Shown here: positions 1 to 42,051 of the stretch, one piece after another
How positions within the stretch are numbered: the stretch's first letter is position 1
Layout of the letters: each line of letters opens with the position of its first letter
Assembly (NCBI GenBank): GCA_023251095.1
Contig: JAHEZL010000012.1
Coordinates: 42,243 to 106,242, forward strand
Length of the DNA stretch: 64,000 nt
Direction: 5' to 3'
From: Flavobacteriales bacterium
GTDB taxonomy: Bacteria; Bacteroidota; Bacteroidia; Flavobacteriales_C; GCA-002722245
Made by a program: the position numbers and the translations under genes
The notes under the pieces: generated by a model
Seen by the model: the letters and a program-made list of their open reading frames with translations, nothing else
What the model was told of the DNA's origin: nothing
Database searches by the model: none

Positions 1-770
1 ATTCCATTTCCTTTGGCTTCCACGGTGGTGAGTTCTGAGCGCAATAATTTTTTTAATGCTTCCTGAAGATATTTAGCTTCATTTTGAGCGCCTTTATTGT
101 AATAGATAATAGTGCCGGCAGAGATTTTAAATTCGCCTTTTTCTTTTTTGTAATGGATAGGAGTGGGGAGGATGGGAGAGTAGTCGTCTTCCGACAAATC
201 GGAAATCATTTTATTTTTTTCATATCTGCTTTCGGCACTTGGTACAGCTACGCTGTCGTTGGGAGTTCTGTTGACTTGTTCGGGTTTATTGAGTGGTGCA
301 TAAGTGATGTTTGAAAGTACTTCGGGAGCGAGATCTTTTCCTGCGGAATCTTTAAACACGATGTAAAATCCGCAAGGGAAATCGGCATTTTTGATGATCC
401 ATGCTCCTGTTTCAAAAGAGAAGCTCAGTTGGCCTTTTGCAGGAAGGGTTTTAAATGTTTTGGCAGGTTCTATTTTATAGAAATCACCATTGATACGGGT
501 GATAATAACATCTCCTTTTACTGATTTGTCAATGATGGTACGTGTTTGATTGAAATAGATGGTCCAGTTGGAAGCAAATTCTCCAGCGCTATTGTTTTGA
601 ATGACGAATTGATTGAGTGATTGTTCTTTTCCCTGATAGGTGTTGCTTACCATTGCATAAGATATGGAAAGGTCTTTTGCTGTTGCGGGAGCGCCGACTT
701 TCACTTCGGTTTCATTACACGCTGAAAAGGAAACAGCGATCAAAAAGGCGAAAAATAAATGCTTCATCAT
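1..770 (-). CDS. GH20 beta-N-acetylhexosaminidase/chitobiase lipoprotein, 5' part (runs off the window; absent from the ORF track)
   Basis: Manual translation: MMKHLFFAFLIAVSFSAC (lipobox), then NWTIYFNQ...RINGDFYKIEP (CHB_HEX chitobiase N-terminal domain) and ILPTP (start of the GH20b domain); frame stays open to the edge. Confidence 0.8.
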   Translation of the reverse strand, partial: MMKHLFFAFLIAVSFSACNETEVKVGAPATAKDLSISYAMVSNTYQGKEQSLNQFVIQNNSAGEFASNWTIYFNQTRTIIDKSVKGDVIITRINGDFYKIEPAKTFKTLPAKGQLSFSFETGAWIIKNADFPCGFYIVFKDSAGKDLAPEVLSNITYAPLNKPEQVNRTPNDSVAVPSAESRYEKNKMISDLSEDDYSPILPTPIHYKKEKGEFKISAGTIIYYNKGAQNEAKYLQEALKKLLRSELTTVEAKGNG

Positions 771-832
771 GTACAAAGTTGAGTAGGATTCAAATCTAAT
801 AATACTATCTCTTCTTTTCAAAGAAGCAAAGA

Positions 833-14044: not shown

Positions 14045-14752
14045 TTAAATTAAAGCTTTTAGAGAAGAAACTCCCAGAGGTCGCTCGGTGGTGAAGCCTT
14101 CTCCGTGCAGTTTTCCTATTAAGCGACCATATTCAATGGCTCTGCCTTCGAGGTAAGAGAAAAACTCCGGACCGGAAATAGGGGTGAGGATTTCTTCGGA
14201 ATCGGGATTGTAAAACTGAGAACGGAAAGCTTTTACGGTTTCCATTTTTTTATCGAAAAAACCGGTGATGTCAACAATCAAATCGGGTTTGGTGAAACGA
14301 TCCTGAATGTAGTGGTAAACCACTTCGGGTCGGTGCGGATTTTGTCCGGTGTCAATTCTTATCAATCCGGAAAGGAAGCAGGCTTCGCTTACTAATTGTG
14401 CTGCGCGACCATGATCAGGATGCCTGTCGGATATGGCATTTGCCAACACTATCCTCGGTTTATATTTACGAATCATTTTGATTACGCTGATTTTATTGGC
14501 TTCCGATAAATCAAAAAAACCGTCGGGCATTTTTAAATTTTCGCGCGCTGAAATTTTCATGAGTTTGGCAGCTTTGTCGGCTTCTTCCCTGCGGATTTCT
14601 TTATTGCCTCTTGTACCTAATTCTCCTTCGGTAAGATCAATGATGCCTACTTTATAACCTTGTTCAATGTGTTTGATCAGCGTGCCCGAACAAGAAAGTT
14701 CAATGTCGTCGGGATGCGCTGAAAATGCCAGAATATCTAGTGTTTCACTCAT
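14045..14752 (-). CDS. bshB1: Bacillithiol biosynthesis deacetylase BshB1
   Basis: AHPDDIEL, DLTEGELGTRG, DRHPDHG. Confidence 0.92.
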   Translation of the reverse strand: MSETLDILAFSAHPDDIELSCSGTLIKHIEQGYKVGIIDLTEGELGTRGNKEIRREEADKAAKLMKISARENLKMPDGFFDLSEANKISVIKMIRKYKPRIVLANAISDRHPDHGRAAQLVSEACFLSGLIRIDTGQNPHRPEVVYHYIQDRFTKPDLIVDITGFFDKKMETVKAFRSQFYNPDSEEILTPISGPEFFSYLEGRAIEYGRLIGKLHGEGFTTERPLGVSSLKALI

Positions 14753-15006: not shown

Positions 15007-16035
15007 ATGGCTAAAATTAAAGTTGCTTTCAATGGAATGGGCCGAATCGGCAAAAATGTAATGAGAGTTATCGTTGAAAAATTTAACGATCAGATTGAGA
15101 TAGTGGCGGGTAACGACTTGGTTCCTGCTTCTGAGATCGCAAGCGGTTTACCTAAAGATTCTATTTTCGGAAGATTTCCGGTAGATGTTAAATTGGTTTC
15201 TGACAATGTAATTCAGGTTGGTACACATAAAATCACTGTATATGCTGAAAAAGACGCAAACAACATTAAATGGGCTGCCCATGATGTTGATGTGGTTTTT
15301 GAGTGTACAGGTTTTTATTTAACTACTGAAAAAGCTCAGGCGCATATCAATGCCGGTGCAAAAAGAGTAATTGTTTCTGCACCTTGTAATGATGCAACTA
15401 AAACGGTTGTTGTGGGTGTAAACCACGATTCAATCAGTGCTGATGATAAAATTGTTTCTAACGCTTCTTGTACTACCAACTGTTTGGCTCCAATGACCAA
15501 AGCTTTGGATGATACTTATAAAGTGATTTCTGGTTTGATTTCTACAACTCATGCTGCAACTGCAACTCAAAAAGTAGCTGATGCTTTCGGTGGTGGAAAA
15601 AACAGAGCGACTTTGAACAACATTATTCCTGCATCTACAGGTGCTGCGAAAGCAGTAGGAAAAGTATTGCCTCACTTAAACGGTAAATTAAACGGTACTG
15701 CATTAAGAGTTCCAACCGATACAGGTTCAGTAGTTGAAGCGGTTTATCTGATTGAAGGAAATGTAACGAAAGAAGAAATTGCAACTGCAATGAAAGCTAA
15801 CGTAGCTAAAATCAACAGCGGTTCAATTTTGAAACAAACAGCTTACTTCGGTGACTACTACGAGTGTTCAAGAGACTGCGTTGGAGAGCCTTTCTCTTCA
15901 ATGATTATGGATGACGTTTTGGTTGTTCCAAGCAATGGAAATACACTTGTTAAAATGACAAGTTTTTATGATAACGAAATGGGCTTCTCTCACCGTATGG
16001 CTGAGTTGGCGCTTATCTTCACAGGTAAAAAATAA
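15007..16035 (+). CDS. gap: Glyceraldehyde-3-phosphate dehydrogenase type I (divergent)
   Basis: NGMGRIG, ECTG, NASCTTNCLAP, IIPASTGAAKA, RVPT, YDNE. Confidence 0.95.
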   Translation: MAKIKVAFNGMGRIGKNVMRVIVEKFNDQIEIVAGNDLVPASEIASGLPKDSIFGRFPVDVKLVSDNVIQVGTHKITVYAEKDANNIKWAAHDVDVVFECTGFYLTTEKAQAHINAGAKRVIVSAPCNDATKTVVVGVNHDSISADDKIVSNASCTTNCLAPMTKALDDTYKVISGLISTTHAATATQKVADAFGGGKNRATLNNIIPASTGAAKAVGKVLPHLNGKLNGTALRVPTDTGSVVEAVYLIEGNVTKEEIATAMKANVAKINSGSILKQTAYFGDYYECSRDCVGEPFSSMIMDDVLVVPSNGNTLVKMTSFYDNEMGFSHRMAELALIFTGKK

Positions 16036-16037
16036 TT

Positions 16038-17033
16038 GTGGCTGAAGCGTTGAAGAAGATACAGAAAATAGGAGTTTATACTTCAGGAGGAGATTCACCG
16101 GGAATGAACGCTGCTATACGAGCAGTCGTTCGTTCGTCGGTGTATTACGGATTAACGGTGTCTGGAATTTACCGTGGTTATGAAGGGATGATAGACAACG
16201 ACATCATTGATGAAATGGATGTTCGTTCAGTAAATCAGATTTTACAAAAAGGCGGTACCATTCTGGAGTCGGCGCGCTGCGAGGAGTTCAGAACTCCGGA
16301 AGGCAGATTGAAGGCTTACAAAAATTTGAAAGCACGTAAAATTGATGCATTGGTTGCCATTGGTGGTAACGGTACTTTTACCGGTGCAGAATTATTGTCG
16401 CAGGAACATGGAATTCCGATTATTGGTATTCCGGGAACTATTGACAATGATTTGAACGGAACCGATTATACTGTTGGTTTTGATACAGCAACCAACACAG
16501 CCATCAGCGCGGTAGATAATATCCGTAACACAGCTATGTCACACAACCGCTTGTTTTTTGTGGAAGTGATGGGACGCAATTCCGGTTTTATTGCAGCCAA
16601 CACAGGTTTGGCTTCAGGCGCAGTAGATATCTTGATTCCCGAAAGAGAAGGAAGCATTGATGCTATTGTGGAGAAACTGGAAAAAGGTCGTTTAAGAAAA
16701 AAAACATCAAGTATAGTAGTGGTTGCAGAAGGTTGTAAATTAGGCTCAACAGCGGATATTGCACAACAGGTTTGCAGCAAATTAAATTACTTTGATGCTA
16801 AAGTGACTATTCTCGGACACATTCAAAGAGGCGGAAATCCAACCTCTTTCGATCGTATTTTAGCAAGCCGTTTAGGTGTTGCAGCGGTAGAAGGATTGAT
16901 TGCCGGCAAAAAGAATGTAATGGCAGGATTAATAAAAAATGAAGTTGTTTATACTTCATTTAAAGACGCCATCATTGAGAAAGATTATGTTGATGAAGAA
17001 GTTTTGCGCGTAGCAAATATCCTTTCGATTTAA
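16038..17033 (+). CDS. pfkA: ATP-dependent 6-phosphofructokinase
   Basis: TSGGDSPGMNAA, GTIDND, VEVMGR, LGHIQRGG. Confidence 0.97.
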   Translation: MAEALKKIQKIGVYTSGGDSPGMNAAIRAVVRSSVYYGLTVSGIYRGYEGMIDNDIIDEMDVRSVNQILQKGGTILESARCEEFRTPEGRLKAYKNLKARKIDALVAIGGNGTFTGAELLSQEHGIPIIGIPGTIDNDLNGTDYTVGFDTATNTAISAVDNIRNTAMSHNRLFFVEVMGRNSGFIAANTGLASGAVDILIPEREGSIDAIVEKLEKGRLRKKTSSIVVVAEGCKLGSTADIAQQVCSKLNYFDAKVTILGHIQRGGNPTSFDRILASRLGVAAVEGLIAGKKNVMAGLIKNEVVYTSFKDAIIEKDYVDEEVLRVANILSI

Positions 17034-17056: not shown

Positions 17057-17091
17057 AAAACCTGTTTAGTGAAAATTAAACAGGTTTTTTT
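17057..17091 (+). terminator. Rho-independent terminator after gap-pfkA
   Basis: AAAACCTGTTTA-GTGAAAAT-TAAACAGGTTTT followed by a T run. Confidence 0.85.
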
Positions 17092-17206
17092 CTTTCATCC
17101 TGAAACATCTTTTTGTTTATTGAGTAAAGCGGCTTAATAAGAGGGTATTCTACTAAGTAATGCAATGTTTGAAAAAAATATTTTTTTTCGGGCATTGCAT
17201 TATTTA

Positions 17207-17239
17207 TTTGGAAGTGGAAATTATTTTTCCATATATTTG
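17207..17239 (+). promoter_or_regulatory. Bacteroidota sigmaA promoter for the chitinase operon
   Basis: TTTG (17207-17210), 21-nt spacer, TATATTTG (17232-17239). Confidence 0.7.
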
Positions 17240-17356: not shown

Positions 17357-18670
17357 ATGAAGAAACTAACTCTCATTGCTCTAATGCTGCTTGTTGCAGG
17401 TGTATTTCAAAATTTGAAAGCACAAAAACAAGATCCACAAAATGCAGTTCAAACCACAGGGAATCCAAAAGAAATCATTGCCTATTTCCCGTCGTGGCAA
17501 ATGTACAAACGCAATGGTTGCGTTGTGCCTGAGGTTTTAGATTACAGCCGCTACACTATTTTAAATTATTCTTTCTACGCTCCTGATAAAGATGCGAACA
17601 TTGAAGGAACTGATCCATGGGCCGATACTATCCTGTTAAAAGGAAGAATTGACTGGAGCAAACCTCAGCCGGCTTACTATCCGAATTCAAGCTTGGTGGA
17701 TTACGCACATTTATATGGTGTTAAAGTAATGGTGTCTATTGGCGGATGGACTTTATCAGACAATTTCCCGACCATTGCTGCCGATCCTAAAAAGAGAGCG
17801 CACTTCGCAAAAGAATGCATAAGATTGTTGCAACACTATCAGTTTGATGGAATTGATATCGACTGGGAATATCCGGGTTATGCTGAGCACAGCGGTACTC
17901 CGCAAGACAGAGACAATTATCCTTTGTTCATGAAAGCCATTCGCGACTCTATTGATGCCTACGGAAAAAGAATCAACTATAAATTCCTTTTAACAGGTGC
18001 TTACGGCGCCAACATTCCTCAAATGGATCAGATCAAATGGGATGTTATCACTCCTTTCATGGATTACATCAACATGATGACTTATGATTTCAACGGTACC
18101 TGGAGTGATGATGCCAACCACAATTCTCCTTTGTACAACCCTTCTAAAGGATACAAAGGAAGTTTAGATGAAGCTTATCGTTTGATGACCGGAAAATACA
18201 AAGTGCCAAGCACCAAACTCAATATGGGCGTTGCCTTTTACGGTAGAACCCTGCGTGGTTTTGAAGGGGAGGAGCCAATCACTATTTACAGAACAGGTCA
18301 TAAGAAAGCAGAAGATAAAACTGTTTTTGTAGAACATGAAGGAATGCCGCAGTATTTCAATATCATGGAAGAGTATAAAAAACATGGCTACAAAGAATAC
18401 TGGGATGATGTTGCGCAGGTTCCTTATCTGGTAAGTGAAGATGAAAAATCTTTTGTATCCTACGACAATCCGAAATCTGTAAGACTCAAAGCAGAATACA
18501 TCGTGAAAAACAAATGCGCCGGAGCAATTATCTGGGACGTGTTTGGCGATTACATGGAGAAAAAACCGGGATCGTCTCTGATCACTGGTACTCCGTTGGT
18601 GGATGAATTGGTGAATGCCTTTGGCACCAACCAGGTTGTTCGTCCGCGAATCAAAAAAAGATGGAATTAA
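17357..18670 (+). CDS. GH18 chitinase (signal peptide; no CBM or T9SS CTD)
   Basis: SIGGW, FDGIDIDWEYP (DxDxE), MTYDF, SYDNPKS, IIWD. Confidence 0.95.
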   Translation: MKKLTLIALMLLVAGVFQNLKAQKQDPQNAVQTTGNPKEIIAYFPSWQMYKRNGCVVPEVLDYSRYTILNYSFYAPDKDANIEGTDPWADTILLKGRIDWSKPQPAYYPNSSLVDYAHLYGVKVMVSIGGWTLSDNFPTIAADPKKRAHFAKECIRLLQHYQFDGIDIDWEYPGYAEHSGTPQDRDNYPLFMKAIRDSIDAYGKRINYKFLLTGAYGANIPQMDQIKWDVITPFMDYINMMTYDFNGTWSDDANHNSPLYNPSKGYKGSLDEAYRLMTGKYKVPSTKLNMGVAFYGRTLRGFEGEEPITIYRTGHKKAEDKTVFVEHEGMPQYFNIMEEYKKHGYKEYWDDVAQVPYLVSEDEKSFVSYDNPKSVRLKAEYIVKNKCAGAIIWDVFGDYMEKKPGSSLITGTPLVDELVNAFGTNQVVRPRIKKRWN

Positions 18671-18719
18671 TTTTCCGCACTAAAAATTCAAAAAATTAGA
18701 AATTAATATTTTCAATCTG

Positions 18720-20798
18720 ATGATGAATAAGATTTCAAAAAGGCGCACAATTCGCCTGATGGGTACTTTCGGAATGCTGCTTAGCTGCGGAACCGCATTT
18801 GCCACAGGTAATTCAGCCGATTCAACGCAGCAGGCGAACGATTCGCTGGCACTTCGTGAGAGTTACAAGCAAAGCAAACCTGTTCTTTTCGGCACAGGTT
18901 CTGTATTGCTCAATCCAACCTATTCTCCGGGAATAGGCGGCATAAAAATCAACCCCCATTTTAATTTTAATGGATCTGAATCTCAGGGCAAAGCCTTGTT
19001 TGCCGATGACGTTGTTATTTCGGGAGTAATGCGTGCATTGATGGTTTATCGTGATATGAACAAATCATACGACGATATGATCACCAGTGAAAAAAGCATT
19101 GCTTTCTCTGATTATCCTACGGCAAATGTCGGTACAACAAATGGTGGGGGATATCCTATGTTAGAGTTGAACTTTTCTTCAAAGTTCCGTTCAAAAATCG
19201 ATTTCAATGTTGGTTATTCCATCACTCCTATATTTACAGGTGATCCGTTGAGTAATAACAGTCGCAGTTTGAGTGCCCGACAAAACATTAATTTCTCGGG
19301 ACGCATCAGAAGCGGTTTGTTTGAAACCAGCGTTACTGCAGGTGAGGTGCTATGGGTGAAGATGAGTAAGTTCACAATGGGACAAGCGGAATACCGCGAC
19401 AATTATTTCAATCGTTTGCCTTGGGACTGGTACAGAAGATCTTTCGAAAGATTTGAAGAATATTTCTCACAATCCAGCAACATCGGAAACCAGGGATTGG
19501 GCGGTAGCGCAGTATCGGGTGTGGTGTTTGAAACAAAATATTTGCCTTGGCAAGTGGGTGTGAGAGGGATGTTCGGACGTACAAGTTCAAGCGTTGCCTT
19601 GTCGCAAGGAATCAATTATTTCCCATCTTACACAGGAGTGGTGAAATTGGAAAAAGTGATTTTCGAAAGATTCATGTCGGGAACTGTTGGATTGAACTTC
19701 TATGCAAAACGCGCACAGGTTTCTTTTGAAGACAAAAGACCGGATAACAACACAGTAACCACTTTGGATTTCAATTTTAAAATTAAAAAGGTATTGGTGT
19801 CGGGAGAGTTTGGTGTGGGCAGAGTTGAAAATCCGGGATCTCCTGCTTCAAGTCCAATCGGACAAGGGTATTATTTAAAAACAGAATTCGACAAACGTAT
19901 AGTATTGGTTCCTTTTTCTGTTGAGTATTACAACATCAATACAGCAATGGCGAGCATCGATGGTTCTATCTTAAACTCTAATTCAACTTTGAGTCAGGGT
20001 GGATACGCTACCGAAAAAGTGTACGATGCACTTTACTTACCAAACATTGCGCAGGAGGTTGGACAAATTGCCAACAACCGTCAGGGTTTTAACTTCAGAG
20101 CAGAAGGCGGGTTAGGAAAATACATCAGAATTCAGTTTGGTTATGCTGCCAGCTCCGAAAAAGAACATACTACGGATGACATTACCATTCAGCACAGGAT
20201 AAATGATTTCTCCCGTTCAAGAATGCGCCCATGGTTTCAGGCCGATGGTCCTTACCACAGAATTAAATCAGCGTGGTTCCGTACTTATGAAACCATTACA
20301 GTGAATTCATCAAAACTGACGAACAGCACTACATACCTGAAAGGGTTCAATGCTGCTGAATTGTTATTGAAAGGACAATTTGAAATCAACAAACACAAAT
20401 TGATCATTTTAAACTACAACAGTTTCAATACGGTTCAAAACGGATTCAATCCTTTGAATCCTATTCCGAACAACAATACTTTTATCTCAGTTTTCTATGA
20501 AGATTTAACGGTTGCTTTCAGCATCCTTAAAAACTTATCGGTAGTGGCAGAGGCAGGATTTGAAACGGTGAAAGGAAGCACTTCGGTGAATCTTTCTCCT
20601 GATAAAGCAAGTGCTGCCGATTCAGATAGAGTGATTAACCAATTGGGTAAAACTATTGCCTTCGGTATTGATTACGATATCGCCAGAAACATGAACATAC
20701 ATCTTCGTCGCAGATATTTTACACATCAGGATTACAACTTCACCAAAGATGTGTTTGATGGCAATGAAACAACTTTCGAATTTAAAATTTTCTTCTAA
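18720..20798 (+). CDS. Uncharacterised outer-membrane beta-barrel protein
   Basis: Signal peptide, amphipathic beta-strands, C-terminal FEFKIFF; no SusC/TonB plug features seen. Confidence 0.75.
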   Translation: MMNKISKRRTIRLMGTFGMLLSCGTAFATGNSADSTQQANDSLALRESYKQSKPVLFGTGSVLLNPTYSPGIGGIKINPHFNFNGSESQGKALFADDVVISGVMRALMVYRDMNKSYDDMITSEKSIAFSDYPTANVGTTNGGGYPMLELNFSSKFRSKIDFNVGYSITPIFTGDPLSNNSRSLSARQNINFSGRIRSGLFETSVTAGEVLWVKMSKFTMGQAEYRDNYFNRLPWDWYRRSFERFEEYFSQSSNIGNQGLGGSAVSGVVFETKYLPWQVGVRGMFGRTSSSVALSQGINYFPSYTGVVKLEKVIFERFMSGTVGLNFYAKRAQVSFEDKRPDNNTVTTLDFNFKIKKVLVSGEFGVGRVENPGSPASSPIGQGYYLKTEFDKRIVLVPFSVEYYNINTAMASIDGSILNSNSTLSQGGYATEKVYDALYLPNIAQEVGQIANNRQGFNFRAEGGLGKYIRIQFGYAASSEKEHTTDDITIQHRINDFSRSRMRPWFQADGPYHRIKSAWFRTYETITVNSSKLTNSTTYLKGFNAAELLLKGQFEINKHKLIILNYNSFNTVQNGFNPLNPIPNNNTFISVFYEDLTVAFSILKNLSVVAEAGFETVKGSTSVNLSPDKASAADSDRVINQLGKTIAFGIDYDIARNMNIHLRRRYFTHQDYNFTKDVFDGNETTFEFKIFF

Positions 20799-20812
20799 TA
20801 ATTTATAAAGCA

Positions 20813-22534
20813 ATGCAAAACAAAAAATTATTACTTACATCAGCGTTAACGGTAGCTATAGGAGGTTCTCTATTGGCGCAAATGATGGGACAATCACCGA
20901 CTAAATTTTCTTTGAATGGTTTAGGACGGTCATATATTACCAATAGCAATTTGAGCGGGAATATTATGAGTGGCGACACTAAAACCCACAACGCGGGGAT
21001 TGGCGGTTACAACTTATTTGACCTTCAAAATAATCTGGCTATAGATTCTGCTTTTCAGGCTACAGCCACTTACAGGGTGAGAAGTGAGTTTGGTGCTTTT
21101 TACGGAAGTGCAAACTCTTTCAAATTCCGTCAGTTTAAATTAATGGGTAAAATAAAAGATTTCAGATATGAGATCGGTGATGTTCGTATTGAACTCACTC
21201 CTTTTACCGTGTTTAATTTCGGCGATATGTACCACAAGTACGAATCGGAAATCTTCCAGATGAGAAGAGCCATCACCGAATACGAAAACATGAACGTTGG
21301 TAACGGATGGTTGCTGCAAGGTGCGCACCTGAAATACGGTCATGATTTCGAAAACTGGGGAATTGGTGCTTATGGTTTCGTAACCAGAACAACTTCAACC
21401 AATGAGATGAGTATTTCCGACAGATTATTGTCGGGTGCAAGAGTTGGCGCTTCTTTTGGCGACAATATTAAAATCGGTGGAACGTATGTTGGATTAACCG
21501 ATGTGGATATTCAATCGGCTACATACTCTTACAAAAACTACGTTGGAACGGGAGATGTTGAATACCTGATGAATTCTGATGCAAGTGCTTTAAAAATCAG
21601 ATTTGAAGGTGGAGCATCAAGTTTCAACTACAAAAATGTTGCTGCGGTAATCGATTCATCAAAATCATATCAGGATTATTTCCTTGATCTTACAGCAAGT
21701 TTAGCATTGAAAGGTCCTGGAATTAAATTCACCTTGGGTGTAACAGATGTTGGACAATATTATAACTCTCCAACTGCACAAACCAGAAGAGTGGTTGACA
21801 ACATGAACCCGGCTTTATTCGGATTGGTGAACAATGCAAGTGTATTGAGAGCTCCGATTTTGTTCGACAGAATGAATTCTGAACAATTGTACAACAGCAA
21901 AATCGCTTATGTATTGACTCCTTATTTGAATCAATTTAACAATGCTCAACCTTATGGCAAGGCAACCCCTAACCGTCAGGGTGCGTCTATTACAGTAGCG
22001 TCGGATACTTCAATGCAAAATGTTGATTTCGAAGTAGGTTTTGATTACTTACAAGAGATCGTTGGAGAAGGAACAGCTGACCTTAGAAACTTTATGGTAG
22101 TAAAAGGGGGAGTTAAACTGGAGATTGGTAAAATGATAGGCTTGGGTCGCAAACTTGATTTCTCAGTAGGAGGAAGAATGGAAAAAACGGCCAGAGCAGG
22201 AGCAGGTTCAATTGCTTTATCAAGCACAGTTGCTGATGCAGGAGTTTCTTTTGAAGTAATTAAAAAAGTGGATTTATTGTTCGGCTACAAAATGTTGGTA
22301 GCTAACGGTAATGAATATGCTTCACAAAGAGATGCTTTCAATTCTATTGCAACTATCAACGGATTAAGCATCAATTCAAATGAAGGAATTGCTTCGGCAG
22401 GAGTGCAAGTGCGTTTCTCTCCAATGCAATCTTTCTCTGTACACTACAACATGGTGACGTACGTCAACACTTTGGTAAGTGCAGGTTCATATAATATTTC
22501 TCAATTGCTGTTATCATACACAGGCAAATTTTAA
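20813..22534 (+). CDS. Uncharacterised outer-membrane beta-barrel protein
   Basis: Signal peptide (LLAQ), amphipathic strands, C-terminal LSYTGKF. Confidence 0.75.
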   Translation: MQNKKLLLTSALTVAIGGSLLAQMMGQSPTKFSLNGLGRSYITNSNLSGNIMSGDTKTHNAGIGGYNLFDLQNNLAIDSAFQATATYRVRSEFGAFYGSANSFKFRQFKLMGKIKDFRYEIGDVRIELTPFTVFNFGDMYHKYESEIFQMRRAITEYENMNVGNGWLLQGAHLKYGHDFENWGIGAYGFVTRTTSTNEMSISDRLLSGARVGASFGDNIKIGGTYVGLTDVDIQSATYSYKNYVGTGDVEYLMNSDASALKIRFEGGASSFNYKNVAAVIDSSKSYQDYFLDLTASLALKGPGIKFTLGVTDVGQYYNSPTAQTRRVVDNMNPALFGLVNNASVLRAPILFDRMNSEQLYNSKIAYVLTPYLNQFNNAQPYGKATPNRQGASITVASDTSMQNVDFEVGFDYLQEIVGEGTADLRNFMVVKGGVKLEIGKMIGLGRKLDFSVGGRMEKTARAGAGSIALSSTVADAGVSFEVIKKVDLLFGYKMLVANGNEYASQRDAFNSIATINGLSINSNEGIASAGVQVRFSPMQSFSVHYNMVTYVNTLVSAGSYNISQLLLSYTGKF

Positions 22535-22545
22535 TAGAGACTACT

Positions 22546-23676
22546 ATGTATAAAAAAGGAATATATACAATTCTCTCTTTTCTGGTCCTTCTGGGCGCAG
22601 GGTGCAAGAGAGAAACAATGGTGGGTGATAAAGTGGTTTTCGTAAAGGAAAATCCTTTGGTTGCCAATACCGGATTAACAGTCAATAATGCTAATCCTGA
22701 TTTTACTACTTCTAACAAGAAAGCAGGAACTGCTGTAAGTTTTGCTGCAAGCTTTACTACAGAAGTTTCCTGGAAAATTGTGATAGAAGGAAATCTTTCC
22801 AAGGCAGTGAAAGAAATTAAGGGAACAGGACAAACCATTGACAATGGCAATTCAGTTTGGGAAGGCGACGCAAACACTATTCAGTTTTTCATGACTAAGG
22901 ATACGTGTTCTATTTCTCTTTATGTAGCCGGAATTGACACTGCAATTTCTTCTTCAAGTTTGATCATTAAAAAAATGCTTTCTTACCACCTCCGTACGGT
23001 GGATGGAGTAAGATATCTGCTGGTGGATGATTACGATGGAAATCATATGGGTACCAAAGGAATGGAAGGCTTGTCGGCGGATGCTTTTGATTACGACAAT
23101 AATTCTTTCACTACTATTCAGTCGCAAAGAATCAACGGAAAAAACTCTTTCCATATTGAAGGCAAGGATCTCAACAATAACGGATGGATATTTAGTATGA
23201 ACCATAAGGATTTGGTGGAGATGGTCACTACTACCGACAGTACTAAAAACATCCTGTCGCACGATCCCTCAACTTTTTACGTGAATATTTATGTTCGCGG
23301 AACAGGGAAAACAAGTTCTGCCGTGGAGCTGAAAATGTATGAGTATGATATTGCCACTACCTCTAAATCCCTAATGGATTCTTTAAAGAAAACAACCTTT
23401 GTATTTACGGTTCCTTTGCAGGCTAAAAACGACGGATGGATTTATATCATTGATGTCAACTGGGAAGGCTGGAAGCTGGTAAGTATTCCTTACTCTCAGT
23501 TCCGTGTGGACAATGATTTAACTAAGGGTGGTGGTGGAAACCATATTCAGGAGCCATGGAAAATTACTGCAATGGCAGTGTCGCTCTTATCGGATCCTCA
23601 ATATGGCAATGATGTTTCTGCAGATGTTGATTTCGTGGTCTTGTCTGAAGGTGGTCCGTTTGTTCCAAAATATTAA
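22546..23676 (+). CDS. Lipoprotein, Ig-like plus CBM11/galactose-binding-like domain
   Basis: Lipobox LGAGC; LVDDYDG...VNWEGWKLVSIPYSQF...VDFVVLS. Confidence 0.7.
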   Translation: MYKKGIYTILSFLVLLGAGCKRETMVGDKVVFVKENPLVANTGLTVNNANPDFTTSNKKAGTAVSFAASFTTEVSWKIVIEGNLSKAVKEIKGTGQTIDNGNSVWEGDANTIQFFMTKDTCSISLYVAGIDTAISSSSLIIKKMLSYHLRTVDGVRYLLVDDYDGNHMGTKGMEGLSADAFDYDNNSFTTIQSQRINGKNSFHIEGKDLNNNGWIFSMNHKDLVEMVTTTDSTKNILSHDPSTFYVNIYVRGTGKTSSAVELKMYEYDIATTSKSLMDSLKKTTFVFTVPLQAKNDGWIYIIDVNWEGWKLVSIPYSQFRVDNDLTKGGGGNHIQEPWKITAMAVSLLSDPQYGNDVSADVDFVVLSEGGPFVPKY

Positions 23677-23681
23677 AATTA

Positions 23682-24782
23682 ATGTCTATGACAACTATAT
23701 TAAAAAATATAACATTCAAACTCACTGCTCTTTCACTGGTTGCTGTGATTTATAGCGGATGTCATAAAAAAGATACACTGGGTACAACTGATGTTTGCCC
23801 TTCTGCAGATTTTAAAGTTACCACTCCTTTTTACTTTGTGGGTAATTTAACTACAGTTGATCCTGCAACACAGAAATTATCAATGATTGCAGGTTTTTCT
23901 GAGGAAATAAACTGGACGATTACCATTACAGGGGATAGCCTTGGGGTTAAAACTTATGCAGGAAAATCGGATTCATTAAACATCGATTTTTATGGCAATT
24001 CAGAGAACGATCATTTCTTTAAGAAAAACGAAAATGTACATGTGAAGTTTGAATTAGGCTGTGGTCATGAAAAGGACAATGCTACAAAAACCTTTACTTA
24101 TGTAGGAAAACCAACGATGCACAATACTGATTTCGGATATCTTTTGAATGATTTTGACGGTTATCCGAAAACAGGAGCATACAGCACAAGTGGCGGCTGG
24201 CCTGATGCCAGTGATAAAACTAAGGATTGGATGAAAGTAAATAATTATACCGCTGATCCTTCTCCTCAGGGTACTTATAATAATAAAGCCATGCTTTACT
24301 ACGGTTATGTAGAAGATTCTCTTGCAATGCCACCGGTTAAATTATGGTATTTCAGCGGTTTCACTTCACCAATCTCTACTCAGATTACAGCATTGAAAAC
24401 AGCAGGAATCACCGATACCAAAAGGTTGTATCTCAATATGTATGTAAGAGGTTATCATACTGATTATCCTAATACTCAACTTCAGTTGTCGTTAGAAGGT
24501 ATACAGGAGTCAACAGAAAGCGGTAAAGTATTAGAACCTAAAAATTACAATTTGAATCTGGATTGGGATGGTTGGAAAATGGTTTCTATCAAATTTTCTG
24601 ATTTTTACAATTTGCATGATTTCCCTTCTATAGAGAATACGGCTACTGCATCCAGCATCACCAATCTTGGATTTGGTTTGGGTGCCGGTCCGGAGCAAGC
24701 TTCGAAAACCAAAGCATTGATTGATTTCCTCTTCATTTCTGTTGATGCTCCTTACAAAGAGGTGAAAAAACAGGTTTATTAG
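23682..24782 (+). CDS. Lipoprotein paralogous to the upstream gene (CBM11-like)
   Basis: Lipobox YSGC; LLNDFDG...LDWDGWKMVSIKFSDF...IDFLFIS. Confidence 0.7.
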   Translation: MSMTTILKNITFKLTALSLVAVIYSGCHKKDTLGTTDVCPSADFKVTTPFYFVGNLTTVDPATQKLSMIAGFSEEINWTITITGDSLGVKTYAGKSDSLNIDFYGNSENDHFFKKNENVHVKFELGCGHEKDNATKTFTYVGKPTMHNTDFGYLLNDFDGYPKTGAYSTSGGWPDASDKTKDWMKVNNYTADPSPQGTYNNKAMLYYGYVEDSLAMPPVKLWYFSGFTSPISTQITALKTAGITDTKRLYLNMYVRGYHTDYPNTQLQLSLEGIQESTESGKVLEPKNYNLNLDWDGWKMVSIKFSDFYNLHDFPSIENTATASSITNLGFGLGAGPEQASKTKALIDFLFISVDAPYKEVKKQVY

Positions 24783-24800
24783 AAATGAATAGAGTTTTTA

Positions 24801-24833
24801 AAAATGAGGATTCCTATGGGGTCCTCATTTTTT
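24801..24833 (+). terminator. Rho-independent terminator closing the five-gene chitinase operon
   Basis: AAAATGAGGATTCC-TAT-GGGGTCCTCATTTT followed by T run. Confidence 0.85.
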
Positions 24834-24890
24834 GTTAAAACATATTTAAAAAGTATCCATTCATTCTATGCTAGATTAAATAATCTGAAT

Positions 24891-24898
24891 TATATTTG
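24891..24898 (+). promoter_or_regulatory. -7 promoter element for nagB
   Basis: TATATTTG 28 nt before the TTG start. Confidence 0.6.
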
Positions 24899-24926
24899 TC
24901 GACACAATAAATAAACAACTACTACT

Positions 24927-26828
24927 TTGGAAAATATTAAAACACTTGTTTACGATGATGCGGATGCCGGATCAAAATTCGTAGCCGAGAAAATCCGTAA
25001 TCTTATTGAGTCTCGCAATAAGAAAAAAGAAAAAACAGTATTGGGTTTAGCAACAGGAACAACTCCTTTGAAATTGTATGATGAGTTAATCAGAATGCAC
25101 AAAGAGGACGGACTGAGCTTCGCTAACGTAGTGACTTTCAACTTGGATGAATACTATCCGATGCAGCCAAAAGCGATTCAAAGTTACCATCGCTTCATGC
25201 ACGAGAATTTGTTCAACCACATCGACATTAAAAAAGAAAACATACATATCCCTGCAGGAGACATTGAACTTTCCGAAGTGGAAAATTTCTGTCAGAAATA
25301 CGAAGAGGATATCGACAAAGCAGGAGGAATTGATATTCAATTGTTAGGAATAGGAAGAACGGGTCACATCGGTTTCAACGAACCGGGATCTGCCGTTCAA
25401 TCCAAAACAAGATTGGTTACCTTAGACAGAATCACCAGAAGAGACGCGGCGTCTGATTTCTTCAGCGAGGAAAACGTGCCGAGAACAGCCATCACTATGG
25501 GGGTTGGAAGTATTTTTAAAGCACGCACAGTTTATTTAATGGCATGGGGAATTGGTAAAGCTTCTATTTTAGCAAGAACAGTAGAAGGTGAAATCTCTCA
25601 CCAGGTACCAGCCACTTATTTGCAAAATCATCCTGATACCACTTTTGTTGTTGATAAAGCTGCATCCGATGAATTGGCAAGAACAAAAACACCTTGGTTG
25701 GTTAGCTCTTGCGATTGGACAGAAGAATTGACTTACAACGCGGTTATTTGGTTGGCTCAGCATTTGAAAAAACCAATTTTGAAACTGACCGATGAGGATT
25801 ACAATAAATTCAGCATGGGTGACCTGGTTTCTAAAGCCGGTTCAGCTTATGAAATCAACATCAAGGCTTTCGAAAGAATTAAATATACCATTACTGGATG
25901 GCCAGGTGGAAAACCCGGTACAGAAGGACAAAACCGTCCGGAAAGACCTAGTCCGCAATACAAACGCGCCATCATCTTTTCTCCACATCCCGATGACGAC
26001 GTAATTTCCATGGGTGGAACTTTCATCCGTTTGGTGGATCAGGGACATGAAGTACACGTGGCTTATCAGGTTTCCGGTAATATCGCGGTTCATGATGACG
26101 ATGTGATTTGCTACGCTGATTTCATGCAGGAAGCTGCTGAAATCATTGGAATGCCAAAAGATAAAGCAGAAGAGTTTTACAATAAAGTAAAAACCTTATT
26201 CAATAAAAAAGAGATTGGTGCTGATGATGCAGCTTATGTTCGTCAGATGAAAGGAGCCATCAGAAGAATGGAAGCGAAAGCCGGTTGCAGATATTGCGGT
26301 ATTCCTGATGAAAATGCACATTTCATGAACTTGCCGTTTTACGAAACAGGTAAAGTGAAAAAGAATGGAATCGGAGAGGAAGACATTAAAATCACGATGG
26401 ACCTCATTCGTAAAATTCAACCACATCAAATTTACTTAGCAGGTGACTTAGCGGATCCACACGGAACTCACAAGGTTTGTCTGGACATCATCATTGAATC
26501 TGTTAACCGCTTGAAAAGCGAAAAATTCATGCAGGATTGTTATGTGTGGATGTACAGAGGAGCTTGGCACGAGTGGCCAATCCACGAAATCCACATGGCA
26601 GTACCATTGAGTCCGAATGAAGTAACCCGTAAAAAAATGGCAATCTTCAAACACCAGTCTCAAAAAGATGTTCCTGTTTTCCCTGGTAATGACAGCAGAG
26701 AATTCTGGCAACGTGCGAAAGAAAGAAACGAGGAAACTGCACATTTGTATGATATCCTTGGATTGCCTGAATACGAAGCGATGGAAGCTTTCAGAAGATG
26801 GAATTTCCAGGCTGGAGAAGTGTTGTAG
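24927..26828 (+). CDS. nagB: Glucosamine-6-phosphate deaminase fused to a PIG-L/LmbE deacetylase-like domain
   Basis: LGLATG.TP, FNLDEY, GHIGFNEP; C-terminal SPHPDDDVISMGG and DPHGTH. Confidence 0.95.
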   Translation: MENIKTLVYDDADAGSKFVAEKIRNLIESRNKKKEKTVLGLATGTTPLKLYDELIRMHKEDGLSFANVVTFNLDEYYPMQPKAIQSYHRFMHENLFNHIDIKKENIHIPAGDIELSEVENFCQKYEEDIDKAGGIDIQLLGIGRTGHIGFNEPGSAVQSKTRLVTLDRITRRDAASDFFSEENVPRTAITMGVGSIFKARTVYLMAWGIGKASILARTVEGEISHQVPATYLQNHPDTTFVVDKAASDELARTKTPWLVSSCDWTEELTYNAVIWLAQHLKKPILKLTDEDYNKFSMGDLVSKAGSAYEINIKAFERIKYTITGWPGGKPGTEGQNRPERPSPQYKRAIIFSPHPDDDVISMGGTFIRLVDQGHEVHVAYQVSGNIAVHDDDVICYADFMQEAAEIIGMPKDKAEEFYNKVKTLFNKKEIGADDAAYVRQMKGAIRRMEAKAGCRYCGIPDENAHFMNLPFYETGKVKKNGIGEEDIKITMDLIRKIQPHQIYLAGDLADPHGTHKVCLDIIIESVNRLKSEKFMQDCYVWMYRGAWHEWPIHEIHMAVPLSPNEVTRKKMAIFKHQSQKDVPVFPGNDSREFWQRAKERNEETAHLYDILGLPEYEAMEAFRRWNFQAGEVL

Positions 26829-26845
26829 AGATTTACAATTGATAT

Positions 26846-26882
26846 AAAAAAAGCCGTTGCGATTTTTTGCAACGGCTTTTTT
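26846..26882. terminator. Bidirectional terminator between nagB and msrAB
   Basis: AAAAAAAGCCGTTGC-GATTTTTT-GCAACGGCTTTTTT. Confidence 0.88.
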
Positions 26883-38543: not shown

Positions 38544-39680
38544 TTATTTCACCAAACTTATTTGTGAAGAGTATTTTGAATATAAATCATAAATAATACC
38601 GATCAATGTTTCAATTATATCATTCCAATCCGAATCATTTTTTATGTTTATTTTTAATGCTGATCTAAAATGAGCAATTGAATTTCTAGTTTGGTAAATA
38701 TGTTTTGATATAAGAGGGATTTCATTGTCCTTTTGTATTGTATCGGTAATTTTAAAGACAGATTTAATACAAGTGACCATTTGAGATACAGAGTCTTTTT
38801 CTTCGATTTCTTTTATAAGCTTTTCTAAAGCTTGATCCTCTCGAGGTCTCCAGTTTAAGTCGATTTCAGTGTTTTGAAATAATTTCTTAAAATGGATTGG
38901 GTCTCCTAAATTATTAGATAGGCATATTAAATAAGGAATTGGATATAAATATTCAATGCATTGATAAAGCTCTAAAAAGGAATGTTTCCATTCCATTGAA
39001 ACTATTGCCCGAAGTAAGTTTCCTCCGATTAAATCAATAGGTAATTCTTCGATTAATAATTTTAGGTTTAATAAAGTATCGCTATAAAAATTTAAATTAA
39101 AATTCTTTTTCTGTTCTATTAAGAATCCTGCGTAAAGTGCTAAAAGTGTATTAGGAGTAATATTAAGATCGATATCTAATTCCCATATTGAAAAGTCACT
39201 AAAAAATTGTGTTAATTCATTTGCTTCAAATGCACCTTCGGCTTTACCTTCTCTAGAAAAAACCTTTTCCATTAATTCATATCGGATATCCCTATTTGAG
39301 ATAGGGAATTTTTCTTGTGAAAACAATAATGTAATTAGTCCAGGATTATGTTTGAAGTCTTGTTCTGTATTGTCAGGATCCAACACTGGATAAACTCCTT
39401 TGAGAGAAAAAGAAGATGTTTCGAATGCTCCTGTTATTATTAAGAATATTCTATCTTCCATTGAAAGTGTGAATATCATCGTTTTGTTAGAGGTCTCTAA
39501 GACTTCATTAATAGAAGCTTTTGTCAGTATTTCTTGTGCAAAACTTTCTTTTTTAGTTTGGATATATCTAATCGTGTCGGATCCTAAATTAAAAGACTTT
39601 ACCGTAGCGTTTTCAGTTGGCAATTCTCTTTCTAATCGTTCAAAGAGAGTTCTGTTTATCTCTTTCTTGTTGTTAGTCAT
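38544..39680 (-). CDS. HEPN-domain protein (putative RNase effector)
   Basis: FLELYQCIEYL helix and C-terminal RNSIAH (RxxxxH) motif. Confidence 0.7.
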   Translation of the reverse strand: MTNNKKEINRTLFERLERELPTENATVKSFNLGSDTIRYIQTKKESFAQEILTKASINEVLETSNKTMIFTLSMEDRIFLIITGAFETSSFSLKGVYPVLDPDNTEQDFKHNPGLITLLFSQEKFPISNRDIRYELMEKVFSREGKAEGAFEANELTQFFSDFSIWELDIDLNITPNTLLALYAGFLIEQKKNFNLNFYSDTLLNLKLLIEELPIDLIGGNLLRAIVSMEWKHSFLELYQCIEYLYPIPYLICLSNNLGDPIHFKKLFQNTEIDLNWRPREDQALEKLIKEIEEKDSVSQMVTCIKSVFKITDTIQKDNEIPLISKHIYQTRNSIAHFRSALKINIKNDSDWNDIIETLIGIIYDLYSKYSSQISLVK

Positions 39681-39698
39681 AGAGAAAAAATAAAAATC

Positions 39699-40895
39699 TT
39701 AATATGCTCGCCAACATGGCTCTAATGATTGGAAGTTAAATTCGTCTGAAAAAATCAAGCGAAAAGCTTCAAGATAAAAGGCTCTTTGCCAATCTCCAAT
39801 TTTATTAGTAGGAGCTTTTTTAATCATTTCATTTAATATTGAAAAAGAGAAAAAATCTTTTTTTTCTTCTGGTTTAAGAAGGTTTATTTTTTCTATCATT
39901 TTTTTTGTTGAGGTCTCTATTTTTTCTAAATATTTTTTTTGTTCATCAGCTGTTTTATTTGTTCCGACACGACCAAATATTAATTGAGAGCAAGCGACAG
40001 TAAAACCAATTTTAGCAGGCATACTATCAAATATATGTCTGCCAATATTTATCTTCCCCTCATCAATGGTTGTTTTAATAGCATCTTCAAAAGCTATATC
40101 CAATTTTGAAATTGATGCAAAAACAGCAATAAAATCTTCTAGGAAATTCTCATTGGCAAGAGCTTCAATTAAATCTAATCTTGTGAAGTCTTCTGCTAGA
40201 ACTGAGGCAGTGTCAATTTTTTCTTTCCTTAATCCAAATGAAAGATACATTTCAATAATATCATCAGCATGAAAATGTCCAGCTTTTAGTCTAGCGCCGT
40301 TCTGATCAATTTTGATGAAAATTATTCTTTGTGCAATATCAGGATATTTGTTTTTAACTCTTTTGTCAATTTCCTTTATTAATGGTTCATAAACAACTTC
40401 TATTTGTCTTCTGAGGTTCCATGGTACTTGACCTGTATTTAAAACTAACATTCTGTATGTTAAACTTTCTGTTTTAGTAGTTACCCAAAATTCGACTCTA
40501 ATATCTCTGTCTTTTGAGTTTTCTAAGCATTCTTTGTATACTGTTGTTCTTTGCATTCCATCAATAATAGAAAATGCATCTTTTGAATGATCACTTATAA
40601 GAGTTAAAAGCTTTTTGTTGTCATCAATTTGTTTGACCCAGTTAAATTTTTCTTGATCAACAACAAGCCCAACAACAACAGAAGGAAATACGGCTTTCTT
40701 TTCAAAATCTTCAATCATTCTTTTTCTAATCCGTATTCCAGAAGTTGATGATAACTTATCTCTTTGACCACTAATTTTACCTTGAGCGTCATATGCAGGA
40801 GTAACCAGTGATATGTAGTTGGAAAGCTTCATTTCTGTTAGAACACTATAGCAATTTGAGCGTTCATCAAATTCTGTATTTAAAAAAGTGTACAT
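39699..40895 (-). CDS. ParB/Srx-like (DUF262/DndB-type) protein
   Basis: GQRD...FPSVVVG...IIDGMQRTT...MLVLNTGQVP, matching the QR / DGxQR / xxxN motif set. Confidence 0.75.
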   Translation of the reverse strand: MYTFLNTEFDERSNCYSVLTEMKLSNYISLVTPAYDAQGKISGQRDKLSSTSGIRIRKRMIEDFEKKAVFPSVVVGLVVDQEKFNWVKQIDDNKKLLTLISDHSKDAFSIIDGMQRTTVYKECLENSKDRDIRVEFWVTTKTESLTYRMLVLNTGQVPWNLRRQIEVVYEPLIKEIDKRVKNKYPDIAQRIIFIKIDQNGARLKAGHFHADDIIEMYLSFGLRKEKIDTASVLAEDFTRLDLIEALANENFLEDFIAVFASISKLDIAFEDAIKTTIDEGKINIGRHIFDSMPAKIGFTVACSQLIFGRVGTNKTADEQKKYLEKIETSTKKMIEKINLLKPEEKKDFFSFSILNEMIKKAPTNKIGDWQRAFYLEAFRLIFSDEFNFQSLEPCWRAY

Positions 40896-40896
40896 G

Positions 40897-42051
40897 TTAT
40901 ATAAATCTTATTTGTAGGTTTATTTTGATAAATAATTTCCCGTCCTCTTGATACAACCATCCGTAATAATATTTTTTAGTTTCCTTTGTTGTTCGAGGTA
41001 CACCAGGGTTATTTCCATCTTCTCCAGTTGACGGCTGTTCAAATTTTGTGTTGTTTATTAAGTATTCTCGTAATAAGTTAAAGTCGTATATGTGAAAACA
41101 AACAATATCACCGTCTTCTTTTGCGATTATTACTCCTCCCGTAGCATCATAAACTCCTTGCCAAACAGTTTCCGAGGTCATTCCCATTGCGCATTCTGCT
41201 AGGAATCTTTTAAGTTTATATTCGTATAGTTTTTGTTCGGATTCCTCACCATTATAAAAATTAAGAGGGTCTCTCTTTTCTAATAATTCACTTATTTTCA
41301 TTAAAGATGAGTCTCTTTCTAGCCATCTATATAATAATGAATGAGCAATGATTTCAGGTAAATCACCATCAATCATTTTTAAATTTTTAAATAATTGAGG
41401 AGATTGAATTCCTTTAAACTTGATTTTTAAACCAAGTTCTTCGGTAATCATTTTTAAACGAGCAGTTAGCTTTGAGACTCTGCCTGGTGGTTTGTAAGTA
41501 ATTCGATTAAATTCTTCTAAAGAAATGTTTAAATCATTTTCAACTTCATAAATGAAATTATTTCCTAATCCGGTATTGAATAACGTGGAATCTTCTCCAA
41601 TTAATGATTTTACACTGAAGCCTAAATCTGCTTCTGTAGCTAGTCGATGGTCGTATATTCTAAGTTTTATATCAGTTTTACCTGATGTTAATGCAGTGAG
41701 TTTTTTAATCTGTGCATTTTCAATAAAATCATTTGCTTCTTCTATGTTAAAACTTTTTCCTTTGTTTTTTTTGATTCCCTTATAAATGAGTTCGGATTTT
41801 TGATTAAGATAATTTAGGTCTAAGCTACCCGATAGTGTTTTTTTACCATTCATTACCTTGTAAACTTGCACTTCGTTGCCTCTTTCATATTCGATTGATG
41901 AGTTTGATTCTTCTCGATATGCTTTTGTTATTTCATAATAGGAATTTTCATTTTTATTTAAATTGATATCTGATTGAAATAATTTTCCTTCAGCTAAAAG
42001 TTTAGCAAAAACATAAAGTTCACTCCATTCACCTTTATTTCCTTTCAACAT
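40897..42051 (-). CDS. HpaII-family type II restriction endonuclease
   Basis: GNKGEWSELY start, KTDI..LGFSVKS..STLFN, GMT...W.G...ATGG, LQIRF end; adjacent to an M.HpaII-like methylase. Confidence 0.9.
   Translation of the reverse strand: MLKGNKGEWSELYVFAKLLAEGKLFQSDINLNKNENSYYEITKAYREESNSSIEYERGNEVQVYKVMNGKKTLSGSLDLNYLNQKSELIYKGIKKNKGKSFNIEEANDFIENAQIKKLTALTSGKTDIKLRIYDHRLATEADLGFSVKSLIGEDSTLFNTGLGNNFIYEVENDLNISLEEFNRITYKPPGRVSKLTARLKMITEELGLKIKFKGIQSPQLFKNLKMIDGDLPEIIAHSLLYRWLERDSSLMKISELLEKRDPLNFYNGEESEQKLYEYKLKRFLAECAMGMTSETVWQGVYDATGGVIIAKEDGDIVCFHIYDFNLLREYLINNTKFEQPSTGEDGNNPGVPRTTKETKKYYYGWLYQEDGKLFIKINLQIRFI

Follow-up and report, generated by a model that had tools for sequence, protein, structure and literature searches.

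The five-gene unit and its products

A stretch of 64,000 nucleotides (nt) from a Flavobacteriales bacterium (assembly GCA_023251095.1, contig JAHEZL010000012.1, positions 42,243 to 106,242 of the forward strand), referred to here as the window, contains a unit of five co-oriented genes at window positions 17357-24782. These genes encode a chitinase of glycoside hydrolase (GH) family 18, two predicted beta-barrel proteins named A692 (barrel A) and B573 (barrel B), and two lipoproteins named L376 and L366, with spacers of 49, 14, 11 and 5 nt between successive genes. Gene positions were taken from open-reading-frame (ORF) calls over the 64-kb window, and families were assigned by Pfam and NCBIfam scans. 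An earlier note, made from the letters of the window, had described five tightly spaced genes with one terminator and with no SusC, SusD or regulator at the locus. The ORFs were recovered at exactly these positions, none of the Pfam and NCBIfam matches of the locus is a SusC, a SusD or a regulator, and an intrinsic terminator closes the unit at 24800-24832 (+; folding energy dG -19.5, z-score -5.0, followed by a U-run). This terminator was missed by a consensus scan and was found by folding against shuffled sequences, with 0 of 200 shuffles folding as well.

The first gene (17357-18670, +) encodes a GH18 chitinase of 437 amino acids (aa; Pfam Glyco_hydro_18, E 4.9e-70), whose closest solved chains are the chitinases 5gzu/5gzt (E 1.4e-87), followed by further chitinases, and which also matches the NCBIfam ChiD model (E 4.8e-33). 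Reading of the sequence identified a catalytic DGIDIDWE motif and an MTYDFNG motif, which we take to be of the chitinase type. The protein possesses a signal peptide, no lipobox cysteine and no C-terminal type IX secretion system (T9SS) domain, and because of this combination it is predicted to reside in the periplasm, where imported chains would be fed to it. Among the 14 GH18 matches of the genome, 13 carry a Por_Secre_tail domain, and the enzyme of this operon is the sole exception.

The second and third genes encode the barrels. A692 (692 aa; 18720-20798, +) is modelled with about 24 strands and ends in FEFKIFF, B573 (573 aa; 20813-22534, +) is modelled with 22 strands, and both proteins terminate in Phe. 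The B573 model has a predicted local distance difference test (pLDDT) score of 88.5 and a predicted template-modelling (pTM) score of 0.83, and its strand 1 begins at residue 31, 8 residues past the predicted signal cleavage. The A692 model reaches a pLDDT of 73 and a pTM of 0.71, with segments 1-10 and 17-91 below a pLDDT of 50 and containing no folded domain. Neither protein matches Pfam Plug, TonB_dep_Rec or CarboxypepD_reg, nor SusC, and since no plug is predicted, A692 and B573 are predicted not to be TonB-dependent transporters. On the evidence of their profiles, the two barrels are distant paralogues (hhalign probability 95.8%, E 7e-9, 457 columns). An invariant PYGxATPNRxG motif of the barrel B family sits in a 74-residue non-strand segment (314-387), and family members range from 311 to 619 aa among the best 150 of 755 representatives. 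A GQIANNRxG segment is conserved in barrel A.

None of the four proteins A692, B573, L376 and L366 reaches a family at the curated cut-off in Pfam or NCBIfam, with NCBIfam giving no match, and in sequence comparison with solved chains three of them were without hits and one obtained a single chance hit (E 0.96). In structural comparison by VIA-align, TonB-dependent transporters aligned by their barrel parts only, with Z 12-14 over 355-390 residues at a root-mean-square deviation of about 4 Å, OpdQ with Z 15.4, and the chitoporin 7vtz with Z 12.8. Two candidate readings of barrel B were rejected. An assignment of B573 to DUF6029 (PF19494) had been offered by an ESM Atlas feature score of 0.96; B573 has no Pfam hit at E <=0.01, and PF19494 has no match genome-wide at E <=1. 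A 973-aa 'long form' of barrel B in another genome (G344), considered as a fusion, is an over-extended reading frame and no fusion: the genome is high in GC, and the frame runs into the barrel A gene that lies upstream.

The last two genes encode the lipoproteins. L376 (376 aa; 22546-23676, +) has the lipobox LGAGC with Cys20, and L366 (366 aa; 23682-24782, +) has the lipobox YSGC with Cys27. In the lipoproteins, the cysteine is in every case followed within a few positions by K/R and an acidic residue, a pattern that we take to resemble the surface-export signal of Bacteroidota. The two had been described as paralogous, and this is confirmed by their family profiles (hhalign probability 100%, E 1e-55) as well as by tblastn, in which the two align over 134 aa at 27% (E 2e-5). 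Both show weak, sub-threshold Pfam matches, for L366 to SGBP_B_XBD (E 0.006). The C-terminal half of the Atlas model of L376 is CBM11-like, with a template-modelling (TM) score of 0.40 by query and 0.69 by row, which lies under the bar and is treated as a lead; for CHU_1279 of Cytophaga hutchinsonii, too, a fold similar to CBM11 is reported (PMC12016534). Joint structure prediction of B573 (residues 24-573) and L376 (residues 21-376) from separate alignments scored 0.11 against a mark of 0.32, which gives no call either way on a barrel-lipoprotein complex.

Relatives in Cytophaga and across genomes

The window locus was compared with the chu_1276-1280 cluster of C. hutchinsonii, an 'atypical PUL' (polysaccharide utilization locus) that PMC12016534 also reports for C. 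aurantiaca and for Sporocytophaga myxococcoides. C. hutchinsonii is absent from the 80 loci kept in the survey described below, and C. aurantiaca DSM 3654 (locus L019), which carries an orthologous chu_1276-1280 cluster (PMC12016534), was used as a stand-in for CHU_1276, CHU_1278 and CHU_1279; NCBIfam holds no model for the Cytophaga proteins themselves. CHU_1277 was represented by P0094, named by NCBI 'CHU_1277 family cellulose-binding protein [Cytophaga hutchinsonii]', which was found with a second barrel B of the same genome (contig C30, 49% identity). B573 matches P0094 at 34% identity over its full length (573 aa, E 4e-93), and the barrel B of L019 matches it at 77%. A692 aligns at 25% identity over 563 aa (E 3e-46) with a 747-aa L019 protein whose gene stands upstream of the one for the CHU_1277 orthologue; this protein is identified as the CHU_1276 orthologue by position together with PMC12016534 rather than by a named record. 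L376 (26%, E 1e-34) and L366 (24%, E 2e-10) match the first L019 lipoprotein (L379, at the CHU_1278 position). Neither has a BLAST match to the second (L374, at the CHU_1279 position), and their families compare with the CHU_1279 type at hhalign probabilities of 12% and 18% (18% for L366) over 42-46 C-terminal columns.

By these comparisons, the locus consists of one CHU_1276-type, one CHU_1277-type and two CHU_1278-type proteins with no CHU_1279-type protein, and its gene order and orientation match the Cytophaga cluster. The proposal of a chitin-directed relative of the chu_1276-1280 machine, put forward with its homology unverified, is therefore upheld for the CHU_1276 and CHU_1277 types as well as for the CHU_1278 type and fails for CHU_1279, and the barrels, at first regarded as novel, are members of the CHU_1276 and CHU_1277 families.

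The genome, rated 100% complete and 0.8% contaminated, holds five cassettes of barrel A, barrel B and lipoprotein (A-B-L). Four further copies of A692 were found, and A, B and lipoprotein co-recur by tblastn on contigs C30, C15, C2 and C3. The window cassette, on contig C39, has the order GH18-A-B-L-L. The C30 cassette, A-B-L-L-GH9 (with CelD_N), is a full chu_1276-1280 orthologue, its five proteins being 43, 49, 31, 44 and 58% identical to those of C. aurantiaca; the C15 cassette is arranged as T9SS-tailed protein-A-B-L-L-GH97, and those on C2 and C3 both as GH16-A-B-L-GH3. The GH18, GH9, GH97, GH3 and GH16 enzymes of these five cassettes are all devoid of T9SS tails.

A pattern scan with one genome per species returned at least 595 candidate stretches, at least 373 of which encode a relative. 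The best 80 of these at least 373 confirmed loci, together with the genome's own 5, formed a survey set of 85, in which ORFs were labelled by BLAST to the paralogues of the window genome. Barrel B directly follows barrel A in 80 of 85 loci, and of the 83 loci with a barrel B, 80 have a lipoprotein immediately after it. Most exceptions to the order end at a contig edge. A Pfam-confirmed glycoside hydrolase lies within three same-strand genes in 50 of 85 loci. The linked families are GH3 (18 loci), GH9 (15), GH18 (10), GH5 (5), GH16 (4), and GH2, GH27, GH97, GH63-like and GH13 (1 each), so the link to hydrolases that the earlier note had left to a synteny survey is found for GH18 and for several other families.

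Labels of linked hydrolases were then placed on a tree of barrel B. GH18-linked rows gather in a single starred clade, where they account for 8 of the 11 rows, and the tree requires 2 changes of the GH18 label, compared with a mean of 7.8 when labels are shuffled (0 of 500 shuffles as low); GH9, GH16+GH3 and GH5 labels group as well. On this tree, barrel B phylogeny follows the linked hydrolase family as an association, not as independent events, because close relatives inflate the clustering. The C-terminus of the operon GH18 (18641-18667) is a basic tail, RPRIKKRWN, and a tail of the form ...R[PR][RK]xIKKRW[KNR] ends every cassette-linked GH18 (the window, L070, L071, L073, L074, L082, L087, L089, L096 and L050). 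Its conservation extends across clades with widely separated barrel B proteins, and the GH9, GH3 and GH97 partners of cassettes are without it; this conserved tail may serve as a signal for retention or docking. Among the GH18-linked loci, NagB/PIG-L is present at the window, L082, L087, L089 and L096, a major facilitator superfamily (MFS) transporter with an HGSNAT-like protein at L070 and L071, and sodium/solute symporter family (SSF) transporters at L082 and L089. The 10 GH18-linked loci all derive from sources other than isolates.

The distribution of the barrels was set beside that of SusC and SusD. In the whole window genome, no SusC (TIGR04056) match exceeded the cut-off, and SusD (PF07980 / PF14322) was not found. 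Barrel B occurs in 3 of 400 other genomes of an even phylum sample, with at most 3 candidates scored per genome. Among relatives of the window genome, 17 of 20 from its family have barrel B, as do 7 of 8 from its genus. SusD occurs in 1 of the 20 and in 0 of the 8, respectively. Against 1.84 billion cluster representatives, the barrel B profile matched 755 at E <=0.001 and 284 at E <=1e-30.

Several further arrangements were observed among the surveyed cassettes. Beta-glucan cassettes (L010, 13513-15015 (-); L011, 5564-7067 (+); L075; L078) encode a GH16 with a lipobox Cys, always preceded by a conserved protein of 193-202 aa that belongs to no known family. Proteins with T9SS sorting domains often flank A-B-L (L009, L055, L056, L062, L070, L071, L072, L091 and others), which suggests, as read from gene neighbourhoods, a secreted-enzyme partner for each cassette; the T9SS-tailed flank protein of L055 is a GH13 amylase, and L055 neighbours the clade to which the GH97 cassette of the window genome belongs. 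A clade of single-lipoprotein cassettes, mostly from Saprospiraceae/Bacteroidota bins (L083, L086, L088, L090, L092, L095, L097, L076, L084), has, following the lipoprotein, a CarboxypepD_reg + CBM9 protein in place of the hydrolase. The bins of L075 and L091 carry the labels Bifidobacteriaceae and Rhodothermia, respectively; the former is probably a mislabelled bin, and the latter would put the family outside Bacteroidota proper.

Neighbouring genes and transcription signals

The genes around the unit belong largely to the use of N-acetylglucosamine (GlcNAc) and to glycolysis. Upstream lie gapA (15007-16035, +) and pfkA (16038-17033, +), both assigned by Pfam and NCBIfam; the order GAPDH-PFK-GH18 recurs in L087, and PFK is upstream in L082 too. 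Two tandem GH20 hexosaminidases with lipobox-like N-termini are encoded upstream, some 16.5 kb away from the GH18 operon, on the reverse strand of contig C39 of the same genome (contig positions 37535-40198 and 40436-43063, the second extending into window positions 1-821), and they are likely, from their family, to provide the chitobiase step. A stand-alone PIG-L protein is encoded at 14045-14752 (-). Downstream, after a spacer of 144 nt from L366, follows a long NagB fused to PIG-L (633 aa; 24927-26828, +; TTG start; NCBIfam NF002557, 1025.6 bits; Pfam Glucosamine_iso + PIG-L). No match to canonical NagA exceeded the cut-off in the genome, and the NagB/PIG-L fusion may supply the GlcNAc-6-phosphate deacetylase step.

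The five-gene unit is limited upstream by a terminator hairpin 3' of pfkA (17057-17088, +; dG -15.6, z -4.5, then a U-run). Between this terminator and the promoter region of GH18 stands a near-perfect hairpin with a 25-bp stem (17154-17206, +; dG -26.5, z -8.7). With 15 genome-wide occurrences of its 10-nt arm, the hairpin is not specific to the locus; the arm was rejected as a shared cassette operator because none of these copies lies beside other cassettes, and instead of an operator the hairpin may represent a small repeat element. A candidate -7 promoter element, TATATTTG, was read by eye at 17232-17239 (+), 118 nt before the GH18 start, and the same TATATTTG stands at 24891-24898 (+), 29 nt before the nagB start, as a candidate separate nagB promoter. 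Both fit what we take to be the Bacteroidota -7 consensus, TAnnTTTG. In a sigma-70 scan, promoter-like sites were not enriched (25 found against 27.5 expected). A terminator hairpin 3' of nagB (26847-26882; dG -24.2, z -6.0) is common to the convergent msrBA. NagB had been placed directly after the unit: its adjacency stands and its membership does not, with the hairpin at 24800-24832 in between, and because nagB has its own TATATTTG and its own terminator, it is probably a separate transcript. Farther along the window, a low-GC island (38544-43316, -; GC 0.31-0.35) encodes a restriction endonuclease of the HpaII type and a C5 cytosine methylase, along with two proteins that match no Pfam family.

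A putative chitin-oligosaccharide module and its alternatives

Taken together, the unit at 17357-24782 is probably a chitin-oligosaccharide acquisition module of the CHU_1276-CHU_1279 'atypical PUL' family. To initiate acquisition, T9SS-secreted chitinases encoded elsewhere in the genome would release oligomers from extracellular chitin, which L376 and L366 would hold, as chains or oligomers, at the surface of the outer membrane. A692 and B573 would then form a TonB-independent passage into the periplasm, where the tail-less GH18 would cleave the imported oligomers and the GH20 hexosaminidases encoded just upstream would finish the products. In the cytoplasm, these would be channelled into glycolysis by NagB/PIG-L, PfkA and GapA, all encoded next to the unit. 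The uptake part of this model is borrowed by analogy from the genetics of C. hutchinsonii, in which three of the chu_1276-1280 genes are reported to be required on cellulose (PMC12016534). Mutants of chu_1276 and chu_1279 are reported to grow poorly on 0.1% glucose too, which points to an uptake role (PMC12016534).

The closest known system, the chu_1276-1280 PUL, likewise possesses no SusC/SusD pair and includes in the unit a glycoside hydrolase without a secretion tail, and that hydrolase, CHU_1280, is reported as periplasmic in the C. hutchinsonii model system. The two systems differ in that the hydrolase there is a GH9 encoded downstream, whereas here it is a GH18 encoded upstream, and in that a second CHU_1278-type paralogue here occupies the position of CHU_1279, which is described as SGBP-B-like (resembling a surface glycan-binding protein), with two CBM-like (carbohydrate-binding module) domains, and as essential in C. 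hutchinsonii (PMC12016534). The window locus is further distinguished by its neighbours, which are genes of GlcNAc catabolism and glycolysis, with no extracytoplasmic function (ECF) sigma factor seen nearby. SusC/SusD PULs, such as the chitin locus described for Flavobacterium johnsoniae (PMC5127042), share with it the co-orientation of surface lipoproteins, a barrel and dedicated hydrolases, as well as T9SS-secreted chitinases elsewhere in the genome; they differ in that the plugged SusC and the tetratricopeptide-repeat (TPR)-type SusD are replaced here by two paralogous plug-less barrels with no evident energy coupling. TonB-dependent transporters combine an N-terminal plug and a TonB box with a 22-strand barrel, whereas the A692 and B573 models contain no plug. 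ChiP (7vtz, 7vu2), OprD/Occ, maltoporin and AlgE resemble the two proteins as plug-less barrels proposed for TonB-free sugar passage (Z 12.7-15.4), but they have 16-18 strands, compared with the 22 to about 24 predicted for B573 and A692, show no sequence similarity, and are not tandem paralogous barrels with dedicated lipoproteins. The likeness to chitoporin-type channels is at most functional.

Several observations weigh against the module as proposed. The fold searches are generic, with Foldseek TM scores of at most 0.37 and VIA-align Z values of 12-15 spread alike over OprD porins, over ushers and over TonB-dependent transporters in their barrel parts, and a plug-less barrel of 22-24 strands would, judging from the models, need loops to narrow its pore. 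The identity between A692 and its L019 counterpart is low (25%), with the first ~200 residues unaligned, and the CHU_1279-type protein that is essential in C. hutchinsonii is missing at the window locus, so that the window system may work differently. In the survey, same-strand neighbours were clustered, one representative per cluster was scanned against Pfam and its label was spread to the cluster, and 35 of 85 loci had no confirmed hydrolase near the cassette, of which 17 end at a contig edge beside the cassette, and the scan left out several or many of the singleton neighbours. The barrel B tree is a quick maximum-likelihood tree (LG+G4) of 82 proteins, 3 loci having been dropped for lacking B or having a B shorter than 540 aa, and its label clustering is the one inflated by close relatives. 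Furthermore, CHU_1276 and CHU_1277 have been read as organisers of the beta-glucosidase activity associated with cells, not as channels (PMC5553014).

This last reading leads to the main rival explanation, in which A-B-L is an outer-membrane scaffold that places or stabilises glycan-degrading enzymes and adhesins, with uptake proceeding through other porins. The T9SS-tailed proteins that flank many cassettes agree with it, as does literature on C. hutchinsonii (PMC5553014); a scaffold, however, makes it hard to explain tandem conserved barrels of 22 and about 24 strands as mere anchors, the cassette hydrolases of the window genome carry no T9SS tails, and the low-glucose growth defects reported for chu_1276 and chu_1279 mutants suggest a role in permeation (PMC12016534). 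A scaffold is therefore regarded as unlikely. Another explanation retains import and changes the substrate to a different GlcNAc-containing glycan, for example the cores of N-glycans, material derived from peptidoglycan, or chitosan oligomers that are partly deacetylated. GH18 includes endo-beta-N-acetylglucosaminidases, the operon enzyme has weak sub-threshold matches to GH85 and to the EndoS TIM barrel, among the genome's 14 scanned GH18-type proteins there are 4 with a match to the EndoS TIM-barrel family, and PIG-L deacetylase domains stand on both sides of the locus. The best matches of the operon GH18 are nevertheless true chitinases, it also matches the ChiD model, and its 437 aa contain the two motifs that we presume to be chitinase-type, so that a different GlcNAc glycan appears decidedly improbable as the substrate.

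The remaining possibility, that A692 and B573 are ordinary TonB-dependent receptors or general porins standing next to a chitinase by chance, draws on their alignment with both TonB-dependent transporters and OprD-type porins. It is already contradicted by the present results and is considered extremely improbable: the two proteins have no plug and no match to the diagnostic receptor families, strand 1 of B573 begins at residue 31, which leaves 8 residues after the signal, the A-B-L order is kept across all 85 surveyed loci, and the hydrolase family changes with the barrel clade. The chitin-oligosaccharide module consequently remains the preferred reading of the window locus.

Beyond the window, the chances are about even that the CHU_1276-1279 cassette represents a second general, TonB-independent PUL architecture of Bacteroidota, one that has radiated over substrates (cellulose with GH9, chitin with GH18, beta-glucan with GH16+GH3, alpha-glucan with GH97+GH13, and GH5, GH27, GH2 and others) and has almost fully replaced SusC/SusD in at least one family-level lineage. 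For Bacteroidota, the SusC/SusD pair is regarded as the hallmark of glycan utilization, and predicting PULs relies on finding it. In the literature searched, the chu_1276-1280 system appears to be known as a cellulose-specific oddity in three species. Searches by chu locus tags returned no description of non-cellulose relatives, a negative that is limited since further keyword searches were uninformative, and the search for the cluster presented in PMC12016534 covered just two further species, both cellulolytic.

The recurrence of the same four-protein core suggests a modular import device that has been re-used with different hydrolases. It also poses a puzzle, namely how long glycans could pass through a plug-less barrel of 22-24 strands without TonB energy. 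The cassettes provide natural specificity variants with which to study cellulose uptake in C. hutchinsonii, a long-open question. The core also occurs in genomes for which tools based on SusC/SusD would predict no PULs, and the inference of carbohydrate use from metagenomes would change for such lineages.

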